From assembly GCA_051294905.1 (NCBI GenBank), contig CM119371.1:40488001-40552000 (forward strand): a DNA stretch of 64,000 nt, read 5' to 3'. Shown here piece by piece: positions 39,298 through 42,455 of this stretch. This stretch comes from Botryllus schlosseri. Taxonomy: Eukaryota. Under the pieces are notes generated by a model that had not been told where the DNA came from, ran no database searches, and was given only the letters and a program-made list of their open reading frames with translations. Within the stretch, counting starts at the first letter, position 1; each line of letters begins with the position of its first letter. The position numbers and the translations under genes were made by a program.

Positions 39298-39755
39298 ACG
39301 GACAAGAAATAGATGAAATATTGTATAGTTACCATGCTACGAAACAACACTATCTAGGGAATATCCCTATTGATAAACTCCCTCAGCGCCCAAAACCTCC
39401 TTATTCAATTGTGATCAATTATGATGAAAGTCACAAGGAAGGTAGTCACTGGGTTTGCATATATGCTGATCAATATGAAACCTATTTTCACGATAGTCTG
39501 GGTATCACTCCATTCAGGATTGAGATTGCGAGTTTCCTTGATCCCAAAAATTATACTAGCTCAATAAAACCTTTACAGCATGAAAGGTCAGACGCTTGTG
39601 GAGCTCATGCAATTGCATATATCGTGAAACGCTCTACTGGTATGAGCACACTACAGTATTTGGATCACTTCGGTGATGATCGAAAAGAGAACGACGATAT
39701 CGTAGTGGACTTCGTTAGAATCTTGAAATGGGAGCAACTAGTTTCACCATCATAG
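39294..39755 (+). CDS. Adenain-like cysteine protease (capsid maturation)
   Basis: Catalytic motifs GSHWV, DSLG and LQ....DACG. Confidence 0.92.
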   Translation: MNGQEIDEILYSYHATKQHYLGNIPIDKLPQRPKPPYSIVINYDESHKEGSHWVCIYADQYETYFHDSLGITPFRIEIASFLDPKNYTSSIKPLQHERSDACGAHAIAYIVKRSTGMSTLQYLDHFGDDRKENDDIVVDFVRILKWEQLVSPS

Positions 39756-40045
39756 AATACTTTGGAGATGATGAGAAGGCCTACATGAAAGTCCAAGGAA
39801 AAATTATTGTCATGAATGCAAATCGTATTCATAGAATTTCTTTCGAGCCGTTTCACATACGCATTTACCCGCATGATAACGAAGTTACAATTTTCCGCGG
39901 GTCTGATTGGATACCAGTGCGTTTTCCTAAAAATTGCATGTATATAGATGTGTTGTCGAAGCATAGAATTATTCGTCGTAACCGCCGTGAACTTGTCGTT
40001 TTTCGTAGACTAAAATTATGGGAATTTTTGAGAAATCGCTTTTAA
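39728..40045 (+). CDS. Hypothetical beta-rich protein
   Basis: 105-aa ORF followed directly by AATAAA. Confidence 0.55.
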   Translation: MGATSFTIIEYFGDDEKAYMKVQGKIIVMNANRIHRISFEPFHIRIYPHDNEVTIFRGSDWIPVRFPKNCMYIDVLSKHRIIRRNRRELVVFRRLKLWEFLRNRF

Positions 40046-40112
40046 TAAATTCGTGTGTATTCATCGGAGTTATATATAAGTAGGTATTGCTCGGGATCTA
40101 GTCAGTGTCATC

Positions 40113-40853
40113 ATGAATGCGCTTATAGTATCGATGTGTTATCGCGGAAAGCCGCACCATGTCGAAAATGAAGGAACGTTACAAGACATTCAGATTATGA
40201 CAGATATCTTAGTACAGAAATTCAAATTCAAGACTGAAGATATCAAAGTGTTGCGTGAAGAGCAAGCCACTCTTGGAAATTTTTCCAGAGAGCTTCAAAC
40301 GATGGCCGATAGTAGCGCCAAGATAAACTTCATATATTTCGTCGGTCACGGCTTTTCATGTCCAAATAACACAAAAGAAAATGATCCTGATGCTCGCGAT
40401 TCCGGATTTGTATTTTATGATAGGCATCTACTCGATGATGATATGTGTGAGCTATTAAAAAGCTTTCGTAAAGATACAAAAAACCTACTCATGTTTGCGC
40501 AGTGTTATAGTGGTAACTCTGCCGATTTGAAATTTCATTTACGAGAAGACGCTGCTTCGCAAGCACTCAAGCGCAAACGAGACGTAAAATCAAAAACTGT
40601 TCTCATAAGTGCAGTTAGTGACGATCAAATCAGTTGGTGTTTTGAAGACGGTAGTGCTTTTGCAAAGAATTTCAGAACCGTCATACGTGAACACGACGAA
40701 ATCAAATTCTTCGATCTTATGCGTAAATTGCGACAACTAGATAAGAGACAAAAGTGTTCGATATCATCAAACTTCAAATTGGATGAACACGATCATCTCA
40801 TTCGAAAAAGAAGTTTCAGTTGGATAAAATCTCAATGGAAGAAATCGAAATAA
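40113..40853 (+). CDS. Metacaspase (peptidase C14B), no prodomain
   Basis: Motifs ALIV..Y, D...M...L, FIYFVGHG (catalytic His), LDDDM, FAQCYSG..DL (catalytic Cys) and LISA..DDQ.S, with Q...SS at the end. Collinear with type I metacaspases. TATA-like TATATAAG upstream. Confidence 0.88.
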   Translation: MNALIVSMCYRGKPHHVENEGTLQDIQIMTDILVQKFKFKTEDIKVLREEQATLGNFSRELQTMADSSAKINFIYFVGHGFSCPNNTKENDPDARDSGFVFYDRHLLDDDMCELLKSFRKDTKNLLMFAQCYSGNSADLKFHLREDAASQALKRKRDVKSKTVLISAVSDDQISWCFEDGSAFAKNFRTVIREHDEIKFFDLMRKLRQLDKRQKCSISSNFKLDEHDHLIRKRSFSWIKSQWKKSK

Positions 40854-40938
40854 TAACTATCGTTGCAACCGCGCTGTTATTTCTGGAATTCTTTTTATAT
40901 ACGCTATTTTGCTGTGGAGAAGAATGTGAACGCAAATC

Positions 40939-41280
40939 ATGACTATGGCTCGCATTTGTATTGGTCCCCTACGCTTGAGTAGTAATGGAGATCGTAGCTA
41001 TTATGAAAAAACGATTGTATTACCGAAAGTGAGATCTATCACTATTTCTTTCTCATGTGAAATATTGTATCGTACCAATAAGATCGTAGTGAAGAAACTG
41101 CATGTTCCTCACTACGGTAAGATTGAATCTCCGACAATCACTGTCTGCAAAGACAAACATTACTGTTTACCGCGTACCTGTCCTATTCTTATAGAATTTA
41201 AAGGGAATGCGATCGTTGTAAACAATATAATCGTATTCGAAGCGTTACACAACGCGCGATTTTATGATGCTTGTTACTAG
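40939..41280 (+). CDS. Hypothetical beta-rich protein (possible paralog of 42135-42455)
   Basis: 113-aa ORF with AATAAA just downstream. Confidence 0.55.
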   Translation: MTMARICIGPLRLSSNGDRSYYEKTIVLPKVRSITISFSCEILYRTNKIVVKKLHVPHYGKIESPTITVCKDKHYCLPRTCPILIEFKGNAIVVNNIIVFEALHNARFYDACY

Positions 41281-41364
41281 TTTGATATGTCTGTAATAAA
41301 ATCGCAAACAAACTACGACTCCTCATTCGTGTTCTAGTCAGATACAGCATCAATAGAAAAGTCG

Positions 41365-41435
41365 TGGAGACTACAGGAATTGAACCCGTATCTTCTGTTT
41401 GCAAGACAGATACTCTACCATTGAGCTAAGTCCCC
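41365..41435 (-). tRNA. trnA-UGC: tRNA-Ala(UGC)
   Basis: Full cloverleaf: acceptor GGGGACT/AGTCTCC with G3:U70, D arm GCTC/GAGT, anticodon arm TCTGT-CTTGCAA-ACAGA, T arm ACGGG-TTCAATT-CCTGT. A TTTT terminator lies 4 nt downstream. Confidence 0.92.
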
Positions 41436-41544
41436 ATTCACACGAATAACAACGCAAGCAGACGTTGATTTTTGTTATTTATTACAAGAACAATACTGAA
41501 TGTATAATGCAATTCCACGCTGCTCGCGGTGGATTAAAACAACA

Positions 41545-42024
41545 CTATTTTTCTTGCTGGGTGACTTGCGTATCTTCCATTGCATGTCTACGGGTATATT
41601 GAGTAGCTAGTTGGAAATAACGTACCTTATTTTTCAAATACATTTCCGCGCTCTCTTGATCCATCGGATCATAAGGGTTTGGTGAAGCGAGCAATGAACG
41701 TATTGAAATCATTAGGGCGAACGTTGTCATCACTGGTGACCATTCCTTTTGTAAAATATCGACACATATGGTACCTTTACAGCTTACGTTTGGATGGTAT
41801 ATCCGTGTTTCAAATCGCATTTTAGGAGGCTTGAATGGATACTCGGTAGAATATTCGATTGATAATCTGAACACACCACCTTCGTAGGGTGTTCCGTTTG
41901 GTCCTTGGATCGTTGCCCACCAACTATACATATTCTTTTCATCGAATGGTCCTGCTCGGATAGCTTCGTAAGCATTCTGCTTGAATTTTTCTTGTTCATA
42001 TATCAATCGCTTCAAAGCACGCAT
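41545..42024 (-). CDS. E2 ubiquitin-conjugating enzyme (UBE2D/Ubc4-like), intronless
   Basis: Motifs ALKRL, GP.GTPYEGGVF, YPFKPPK..F.T.IYHPNV...G.ICVDIL...WSP; active-site Cys intact. Confidence 0.95.
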   Translation of the reverse strand: MRALKRLIYEQEKFKQNAYEAIRAGPFDEKNMYSWWATIQGPNGTPYEGGVFRLSIEYSTEYPFKPPKMRFETRIYHPNVSCKGTICVDILQKEWSPVMTTFALMISIRSLLASPNPYDPMDQESAEMYLKNKVRYFQLATQYTRRHAMEDTQVTQQEK

Positions 42025-42134
42025 GCTTATCGAATGATAGTATTCGAGCTGTCGCACTTGCTTTCAAATAAATTATAATTCAATCTAATTGTACATGTAA
42101 ATAGAAATAGGTTACACAATAATAAATGATATGA

Positions 42135-42455
42135 TTAACGTATGAAATGACATGCGTCGCGCATTTCAAATCTACAACAACTCTTCATGAAAGAAGGATG
42201 TAATTCCACACTGACTCCTTGGGTAATAGTAATATCATTTCCGGATATATAGAGATCTTTATCATTGATCTTTATTGACTTTTCTTCATCGTCACTTATA
42301 ATACATGTATATCCTTCATGACGTTTTATTTTGAATTGGCGTTTTAATTGTATCACTTCTACGCCAGTTAATATTATACTCTTTGACGTTTGATTCATTA
42401 TGATCTTTGTTGAAGACACGAATTTGGTATCACCGATTACTATTCTCCCCATCAT
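42135..42455 (-). CDS. Hypothetical beta-rich protein
   Basis: 106-aa ORF whose N-terminus resembles that of 40939-41280. Confidence 0.55.
   Translation of the reverse strand: MMGRIVIGDTKFVSSTKIIMNQTSKSIILTGVEVIQLKRQFKIKRHEGYTCIISDDEEKSIKINDKDLYISGNDITITQGVSVELHPSFMKSCCRFEMRDACHFIR

Follow-up and report, generated by a model that had tools for sequence, protein, structure and literature searches.

A conserved accessory gene cassette encoding a metacaspase-like protease, an E2 ubiquitin-conjugating enzyme, and a tRNA in an endogenous Polinton/adintovirus family of Botryllus schlosseri

A stretch of 64,000 nucleotides (nt) of the Botryllus schlosseri genome (contig CM119371.1; here called the window, in whose positions all coordinates are given unless a locus is named) contains an integrated Polinton/adintovirus copy that carries a compact, uninterrupted gene cassette at 39728 to 42455. 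In the cassette, five intact, intronless open reading frames (ORFs) and one tRNA gene are arranged as two convergent blocks. The plus-strand block comprises ORF-A, a Peptidase_C14 metacaspase-like gene (MC), and ORF-C; the minus-strand block comprises ORF-E, a UQ_con E2 ubiquitin-conjugating enzyme gene (E2), and a tRNA-Ala(UGC) gene. This layout agrees with a preliminary description of the same DNA. We consider the cassette to be probably, though by no means certainly, an accessory module for host interaction, carried by an endogenous Polinton/adintovirus family that was recently active in a chordate with spliced-leader (SL) trans-splicing. The module is syntenic in other copies of the element, its protein genes are under purifying selection, and its E2 gene is transcribed and trans-spliced. 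The enzymatic activities, their targets, and the benefit to the virus are predicted from sequence, and the two enzymes would most likely serve to manipulate ubiquitin signalling and cell death in the host.

Copies of the cassette were sought in the same 495-Mb assembly, which was used for all genome searches. Family 1, to which the window copy belongs, has 11 further full-length 2.8-kb cassette copies, one copy interrupted within E2, and two partial copies. The gene order (protease, A, MC, C, tRNA, E2, E) is constant, and the synteny that the preliminary description had proposed to check is thus the same in the 11 other full-length copies. Pairwise DNA identity over positions 39728 to 42100 in the 12 full copies ranged from 95.7 to 99.9% (median, 97.8%), and the frames were open in most family-1 loci (ORF-A, 12/14; MC, 12/13; ORF-C, 12/13; E2, 11/12). 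Family 2 (10 loci examined) contains the protease, A, C, tRNA-Pro(UGG), E2, and tRNA-Ala(UGC), without MC, and a family-2 variant has a Bcl-2 homologue (L021, 2993 to 3211, minus strand; E = 7.6e-15) and an E-like ORF where E2 would stand. Family 3 (2 loci) contains the protease, A, and MC, immediately followed by an inhibitor of apoptosis (IAP) with three BIR domains (L017, 2660 to 3853; E = 1.5e-39). The BIR protein encoded at L019 (2899 to 3336, minus strand) has one such domain. The cassette order is kept across families that differ by 35 to 55% in protein sequence.

All five cassette protein genes are under purifying selection, as found both within and between families. Within family 1, Nei-Gojobori ratios of means were 0.19 for the protease, 0.31 for ORF-A, 0.19 for MC, 0.34 for ORF-C, and 0.21 for E2. 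When A, MC, C, and E2 were joined, six family-1 pairs gave ratios of nonsynonymous to synonymous differences (pN/pS) of 0.21 to 0.36 (Fisher p, 1.2e-8 to 0.019); these pairs are nonindependent, and pairwise counting was used instead of a tree-based codon model. Between families, synonymous sites were near saturation (pS, 0.52 to 0.83), with pN values of 0.19 to 0.33. For the comparisons in which dS was computable, dN/dS was 0.11 for the protease, 0.11 to 0.23 for ORF-A, 0.21 for ORF-C, 0.17 to 0.30 for ORF-E, and 0.06 for the major capsid protein (MCP); MC showed a pN of 0.21 versus a pS of 0.78, and E2 showed a pN of 0.24 versus a pS of 0.76. The dN/dS comparison across copies that had been suggested in the preliminary description therefore gave one answer at both depths, with pN/pS at 0.21 to 0.36 within the family and dN/dS at or below 0.30 between families.

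Four RNA runs were mapped on positions 26700 to 44500. Run X17 yielded 174 reads from approximately 6% of the run, X19 and X21 yielded 44 reads each, and X13 (organism B), which is no test, yielded none. The E2 bin, with an X17 depth of 4.4 + 2.7, was the only element bin with appreciable depth. By their variants, the X17 reads correspond to family-1 copies of the L006/L009 type rather than to the window copy. Seven X17 reads run past 42086 into the leader ATTGGAGTATTTGGTTGTATTA; the sequence that precedes the leader in these reads is taken by us to be a template-switch adapter. The AG acceptor thus defined for the E2 mRNA (42085 to 42086, minus strand) lies 60 nt upstream of the E2 ATG. The same leader was joined at 28947 (plus strand) in seven X17 reads, so that both junctions come from this one run only; the second acceptor (28947 to 28948) follows TTTTGTTTGCAG and lies 8 nt upstream of an ATG at 28956. 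Both leader junctions are on AG, and the AG at 42086/42085 is conserved in all copies. The leader had 426 matches in the genome, versus 0 for the control, and in three of the six loci inspected it is followed by AG and a GT donor. It is identical to the "Chordata 1" spliced-leader consensus given in Table 1 of PMC3795323. We conclude from these results that the E2 mRNA is made by host SL trans-splicing.

The sequence signals around the genes are compatible with two transcription units. TATA-like boxes were located at −42 (MC), −43 (ORF-C), and −84 (ORF-E), and AATAAA signals were located 15 nt past ORF-C and 62 nt past E2, so that both blocks have the promoter-like and polyadenylation signals ascribed to them in the preliminary description. 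In the signal scan, a TATA box of its own was absent from E2 and AATAAA was absent from the interval between ORF-E and E2. The putative E2 precursor probably starts upstream of ORF-E, and because SL trans-splicing at an AG supplies the 5' end of the E2 mRNA, ORF-E and E2 would resemble a two-gene operon.

The metacaspase-like cysteine protease gene (40113 to 40853, plus strand) encodes 246 amino acids (aa) and matched Pfam PF00656 (Peptidase_C14) with an E value of 3.2e-13 (50.3 bits versus a cutoff of 21.4). The best PDB sequences were metacaspase-4 and -9 (E, ~2e-7). A dyad of His79 (VGHG) and Cys131 (AQCYSG) aligns with the GHG and CHSG motifs of AtMC4, and Asp103 aligns with the Asp of the AtMC4 "vpcD" motif, a residue that presumably lines the S1 pocket and would account for Arg/Lys specificity. 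His79, Cys131, and Asp103 are invariant in six of six homologues, and sequence conservation runs to residue 232. An AlphaFold model of MC had a mean confidence score (pLDDT) of 60.4, with values of 70 to 88 in the p20-like part. The top Foldseek matches of this model in the PDB were AtMC9, AtMC4, Yca1, and bacterial GSU0716 (E, 2e-9 to 8e-6), followed by caspase-1 and MALT1. With AtMC4 (6w8s), AtMC9 (9n3e), Yca1 (4f6o), and GSU0716 (3bij), MC has in common a p20-like core, a His-Cys dyad set in GHG and (Q/S)C(Y/H)SG motifs, and a conserved Asp that precedes a DDD stretch. It differs from type I/II metacaspases in its length of 246 aa, without a prodomain or long linker, in a C-terminal part that is not confidently modelled, and in being encoded by a virus of an animal.

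All 16 MC matches in the genome lie in Polinton copies, and the genome search found no host paralogue. Sequence relatives elsewhere were rare: four were found in 5.8 billion proteins, all on short contigs, and none of the 233 pattern matches in IMG/VR or the 259 pattern matches in JGI metagenomes was confirmed. In the BFVD, all 21 MC matches at an E value of ≤0.001 were C14-domain proteins of giant viruses (nucleocytoplasmic large DNA viruses), including Pyramimonas orientalis virus, Clandestinovirus, and Medusavirus; these proteins are of the same fold class as MC but are only 12 to 22% identical to it, and the MC element is ~19.5 kb compared to genomes of hundreds of kilobases. The giant-virus likeness proposed in the preliminary description thus stands for the fold class, which is common in giant viruses, but the match is no better than that to plant and fungal metacaspases. 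The likeness of the cassette to giant viruses is an analogy only, and the comparisons revealed no specific kinship. As a separate observation inside MC, 11 reads of run X17 have the library adapter directly before 40537 and six molecules end at 40566 (40537 to 40566); these read ends may mark a short RNA 5' end, or they may be an artefact of the library.

The E2 gene (41545 to 42024, minus strand) encodes a UBE2D-like protein of 159 aa that matched Pfam UQ_con with an E value of 5.5e-45 (152.8 bits). The best PDB matches were UBE2D2 and UBE2D3 (E, ~1e-43), and the alignment with UBE2D2 is end to end (E = 9e-44). The E2 segment YHPNVSCKGTICVDIL is aligned with YHPNINSNGSICLDIL of UBE2D2, and the HPN motif, the catalytic Cys, and YPFKPPK are kept, also in comparison with host UBE2D. 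The Polinton E2 thus shares with UBE2D (UbcH5) a single UBC core, HPN, and the catalytic Cys; it differs in its 48% identity to host UBE2D (the UBE2D-like gene L070), its separate clade, a 10-aa C-terminal tail, and the presence of its clade on several mobile elements. Among viral E2 enzymes, UBCv1/I215L of African swine fever virus likewise has a single UBC core with HPN and a catalytic Cys.

Genome searches with E2 gave 113 matches, which include two Polinton families. A tandem array at C1:34,121,103-34,492,664 has 23 intronless E2 matches with 51 to 66% identity to the Polinton E2, and the nearest non-Polinton E2 is a member of this array (64% identity by BLASTP). Approximately 30 dispersed copies with 52 to 55% identity lie in a repeat with an IS1595/ISXO2-type DDE transposase (Pfam E = 1.6e-17). 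This repeat also has an SL-RNA-like gene (the SL followed by a GT donor) ~2.1 to 2.7 kb downstream of E2, as in L073 (1956 to 2411) and L050 (position 1501). A tree of 58 sequences (17 from the genome and 41 of the 120 database matches listed) was built by a quick search with SH-aLRT support only. In this tree, the Polinton, array, and transposon E2s and six database proteins form one clade of 20 sequences (SH-aLRT, 97) that is separate from canonical UBE2D, L070, and L071; within the clade, Polinton E2s (92) and array E2s (95) are sister groups. An assignment of E2 as the host UBE2D orthologue is ruled out by the 48% identity and the separate clade. For E2, too, the giant-virus-like character proposed in the preliminary description is an analogy only: the genes closest to it are intronless E2 copies within this genome. 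The occurrence of one E2 clade in three genomic vehicles represents gene flow between mobile elements and the host.

The tRNA-Ala(UGC) gene (41364 to 41435, minus strand) was identified by ARAGORN, which also assigned the UGC anticodon, and by the Rfam tRNA model (73.4 bits versus a gathering score of 29; full length, 1 to 71). The sequence has the G3:U70 pair (AlaRS identity) and a TTTT run 3 nt downstream, and its function is predicted. ARAGORN found the gene in 12 of 12 family-1 loci scanned. BLAST of the 72-nt sequence against the genome gave 26 matches with 84 to 100% identity, all in Polinton copies of the three families; because no other genomic tRNA was similar enough for BLAST, the gene is no recent host capture. 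A translational role, as suggested in the preliminary description, found no backing in codon usage: GCA makes up 25% of Ala codons and CCA makes up 24% of Pro codons in the Polinton, so that codon compensation by the tRNA is unsupported, in a weak test given the tiny host sample (55 Ala and 65 Pro codons). The tRNA genes are regularly placed. In families 1 and 2, and also in the Bcl-2 variant, the leftward unit closes with a tRNA on its own strand; in family 2 this unit consists, on one strand, of an E-like ORF, tRNA-Ala(UGC), E2, and tRNA-Pro(UGG) (L026, 1 to 1031; L022, 2304 to 3163; L021, 2560 to 3033). This placement suggests tRNA punctuation or insulation.

The three remaining proteins are small orphans. 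ORF-A (39728 to 40045, plus strand; 105 aa) has an Arg-rich C terminus and a 28-nt overlap with the end of the protease gene, through its stop codon; ORF-C (40939 to 41280, plus strand) encodes 113 aa; and ORF-E (42135 to 42455, minus strand) encodes a predicted all-beta protein of 106 aa. No match was found for any of the three in Pfam, PHROGs, NCBIfam, or PADLOC, except for a weak match of ORF-A to phrog_30304 (E = 4.4e-4; function unknown). An ORF-A profile had one match (P0125) in 1.84 billion representatives, an ORF-E profile had none at an E value of ≤0.01 among 657 candidates, and the ESM Atlas returned no usable match for ORF-C or ORF-A. The AF2 model of ORF-E had a pLDDT of 59.6, and its best Z score against 48,161 PDB chains (4.6) was at background level. 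Comparisons of the three proteins with each other gave E values of 0.95 or no match by BLASTP and 0.06 to 0.39 by hhalign; N- and C-terminal motifs shared by ORF-C and ORF-E were seen by eye only. ORF-E occurs as two allelic types with only 57% identity to each other; the neighbouring E2 genes have 95% identity. Between the two ORF-E types, dN/dS was 0.30. Since a remnant of the type-1 C terminus follows the stop codon in three type-2 copies (L006, L009, and L011), the two types point to gene replacement.

The element itself was then delimited. The integrated copy is 5' truncated and spans 26708 to 43316 (plus strand), where homology to other copies starts at 26708 and stops at 43316 to 43318. 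Polinton features are present in the form of PolB motifs, an rve integrase, an A32/FtsK-type ATPase, and, from the C2 copy, terminal inverted repeats (TIRs) with a 6-bp target site duplication (TSD). PolB was recognised by motifs only (Exo I DFES, motif A YDCNALY, motif B KMCGNSAFG, and motif C LELDTDS, at 30413 to 33347), with no Pfam or PDB sequence match. The integrase at 34826 to 35890 matched rve (PF00665; E = 5.4e-13) and a chromo domain (E = 4.2e-11), and the A32/FtsK-type packaging ATPase matched Pox_A32 (E = 1.5e-9; 38.2 bits versus a cutoff of 22.8). The match of the presumed MCP to DJR-like_dom (E = 0.004; 16.8 bits) was under the cutoff of 27. The last core gene before the cassette is that of an adenain-like protease (39294 to 39755, plus strand; 153 aa), which is 51 to 69% conserved in the sister families and had no Pfam or NCBIfam match; His52 (GSHW context) and Cys102 (CG context) are invariant in the sister-family comparison, and we take these two motifs to be of the adenain type. 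PolB and MCP are frameshifted in the window copy, as had been described: PolB is split across three overlapping frames (29547 to 33347), and MCP is split into 38019 to 38759 and 38740 to 39297. The C-terminal 332 codons of MCP are in a single frame in 12 of 14 family-1 loci, the exceptions being the window copy and one other; the MCP frameshift as such is private to the window copy.

The cassette lies well inside the element, because copy homology (in at least nine other copies, to 43316 to 43318) and the right TIR extend to ~43316. The preliminary description was thus correct in placing the cassette inside the true terminus, but the element ends at 43316 and not near 42455. To the right of the cassette, ~430 nt of promoter-bearing sequence is followed by the right TIR (42886 to 43316), which is a 93% match to the reverse-oriented left TIR of the C2 copy (42886 to 43320; 435 nt compared). 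A partial internal duplicate of this TIR is present at 42547 to 42678 (direct repeats D6 and D8), and the right terminus ends with ...TATATACTACT. The C2 copy has both arms, which share 97% identity across 382 nt; its TIRs are ~420 nt, and the 6-bp TSD TTCAAC is present on both flanks; the length of a two-ended copy is ~19.5 kb. The window copy retains only the right arm, with the left ~2.7 kb, including the left TIR, missing, and its truncation point at 26708 directly adjoins the end of an unrelated repeat. A search for a TIR pair within the window was negative because of this loss of the left end.

From these data, a path for expression and action of the module can be outlined. The rightward unit would continue from the capsid and protease genes through ORF-A, MC, and ORF-C, and the leftward unit would begin at a TATA-like promoter close to the inner edge of the right TIR and run through ORF-E, E2, and the tRNA, as the signals and reads suggest. 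Host SL trans-splicing, at the AG 60 nt before the ATG, yields the mature E2 mRNA. Because HPN, the catalytic Cys, and UBE2D-type E3-contact residues are kept, E2 is expected to work with host E1 and E3; it would be charged by host E1 and act with host RING/HECT E3 ligases, so that ubiquitination would be redirected. Cleavage after basic residues is expected for MC because the His-Cys dyad and the metacaspase-type Asp are kept, and such a protease may lie beyond animal caspase regulators. IAP and Bcl-2 occupy this slot in sister elements, so that the shared theme would be control of host cell death and ubiquitin in viral replication.

A more ambitious reading, which we regard as rather unlikely, would assign to a chordate Polinton lineage a self-contained cell-death/ubiquitin programme. 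This programme would consist of a metacaspase-type protease and a private E2, with IAP/Bcl-2 brakes in sister elements, polycistronic units cut by SL trans-splicing and tRNA punctuation, and an E2 clade passed among Polintons, an SL-RNA-bearing DNA transposon, and a host array; the protease would escape host caspase regulators because the metacaspase type is lacking in animals.

Several results weigh against the interpretation of the whole cassette as a host-interaction module. Expression support is thin, in that 168 of the 174 X17 reads fit the stretch only partly. RNA-seq coverage, another of the suggested checks, bore out the transcription of E2 with the SL but not that of the other genes, since depth was ≤0.6 in the MC, ORF-A, ORF-C, and ORF-E bins. 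The C-terminal half of the MC model is unreliable (pLDDT of <50 for residues 131 to 176 and 214 to 246), so that a complete p10-like part cannot be claimed from the model. The genes most closely related to E2 are the array and transposon copies of this genome, so that E2 may be a host gene, specific to the lineage, that has been captured repeatedly, and the direction of transfer is not readable from the tree. Codon usage offers no reason for the tRNA. The three small proteins are without a recognisable fold or family in the searches made. ORF-A follows the protease gene in all three Polinton families and overlaps it, and for this reason it may be a lineage core gene rather than cargo, as may ORF-C, which is found in family 1 (13 loci) and family 2. 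The cassette thus belongs to the Polinton, as proposed in the preliminary description, but the cargo status assigned to all of it may not extend to ORF-A and ORF-C.

The last point leads to an alternative that is possible, though we doubt it: only MC and E2 would be host-manipulation cargo, ORF-A and perhaps ORF-C and ORF-E would be virion or morphogenesis proteins of the lineage tied to the adenain-like protease, and the tRNAs would be RNA-processing or insulator elements at the ends of leftward units and not decoders. The position of ORF-A, with its overlap and its Arg-rich C terminus, fits this alternative, as do the one-strand order of the family-2 leftward unit (E-like ORF, tRNA-Ala, E2, tRNA-Pro), the presence of a tRNA after E2 in family 1 and after the E-like ORF in L021, the occurrence of the family-1 SL acceptor where family 2 has an inter-gene tRNA, and the lack of GCA/CCA codon bias. 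However, no structural or sequence link of the small proteins to known virion proteins was found, and no reads were seen at tRNA ends; each tRNA has its own T-run terminator and canonical A/B-box-like sequence, and therefore an ordinary Pol III gene fits. That the genes are functionless passengers or retrocopies, picked up by chance and decaying neutrally, is very improbable and already largely refuted. The abundance of the E2 clade elsewhere in the genome (113 matches), the intronless state of every cassette gene, and the defects of the window copy (its shortened left end and the frameshifts in PolB and MCP) would agree with such an origin, but low pN/pS (0.21 to 0.36 within the family) and dN/dS (≤0.3 between families) make neutral retrocopies untenable. 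Moreover, the frames are open in 11 to 12 of 12 to 14 copies, and the order is kept across families with 35 to 55% protein difference. Recent host retrocopies, which the preliminary description had itself raised as an objection, are likewise contradicted by the genome searches: MC has no other match and, like the tRNA, lacks a non-Polinton counterpart, the tRNA occurs only in Polintons, and E2 is 48% identical to host UBE2D and only 64% identical to the nearest non-Polinton E2.

It is also quite unlikely that the module serves the host as an antiviral defence, in which protease-driven death or ubiquitin signalling would follow infection by another virus, as proposed for provirophages and Polinton-like viruses (PLVs) in protists. 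PLVs are discussed in this role in PMC12220804. The many intact copies and low basal expression are consistent with a defence, a death protease beside IAP/Bcl-2 in sister families is reminiscent of an effector and brake pair, and the E2 tandem array suggests host co-option of the E2 clade. Selection, however, is equally explained by viral replication; TSDs and TIRs are typical of recent self-driven integration; and there is no known partner virus, with expression unlinked to infection in the present data.

The interpretation of the cassette as an accessory module of the virus places it next to systems already in print, and for that reason it is not a wholly new kind of system; the claim of an undescribed system in the preliminary description was too broad. 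IAP and Bcl-2 cell-death regulators have been described in adintoviruses (PMC8502044), and tRNAs have been reported in PLVs (PMC12220804). The adintoviruses/Polintons of Starrett et al. (2021; PMC8502044) share with the present element PolB, integrase, and ATPase genes, and probably those for the capsid and an adenain-like protease, with variable accessory genes, and the IAP and Bcl-2 homologues described there were found here in sister families. The main text and one supplement file of that paper contain no E2, caspase, or metacaspase term, whereas MC, E2, and the tRNA form a fixed syntenic block here. The PLVs and virophages scanned in PMC12220804 are small eukaryotic double-stranded DNA viruses with one or a few tRNA genes each (558 tRNAs reported); the tRNA described here differs in that it belongs to an animal Polinton, where it has a fixed site closing a transcription unit, with no BLAST-detectable relative among the other genomic tRNAs and no codon bias. 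A literature search found no report of a metacaspase or E2 in Polintons, with subscription journals and RepBase annotations outside the search, and found nothing relevant on Polintons in tunicates.

The cassette adds to the cell-death and ubiquitin genes known from Polintons. Animal Polintons are widespread and their accessory genes are almost unknown; the family described here provides a clean, multicopy, and recently active case in which the block can be delimited, is under selection, and has one transcribed gene. Here a metacaspase-type protease is found in an animal-lineage virus, and with the IAP and Bcl-2 of sister elements it would make up a set of viral cell-death regulators that can be tested in a chordate. 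The SL trans-splicing of viral mRNAs and the fixed tRNA sites suggest how a small DNA virus might organise its expression in a trans-splicing host.

Other features were noted in and around the element. A 74-aa ORF lies between ORF-E and the TIR (42742 to 42966, plus strand) and is open also in L004 (4648 to 4863; 71 aa). The repeat that abuts the Polinton at 26708 does so with one of its arms: positions 23276 to 26707 and 59164 to 62242 are terminal parts of this other repeat family, which has long inverted arms ~12 kb apart elsewhere in the genome, and the inverted partner arms in the window are those at 59 to 62 kb. A host ORF of the NACHT/NOD2-winged-helix (NLR) type is located 2.4 kb to the right of the element (45744 to 47330, minus strand; Pfam NACHT E = 7.1e-15).

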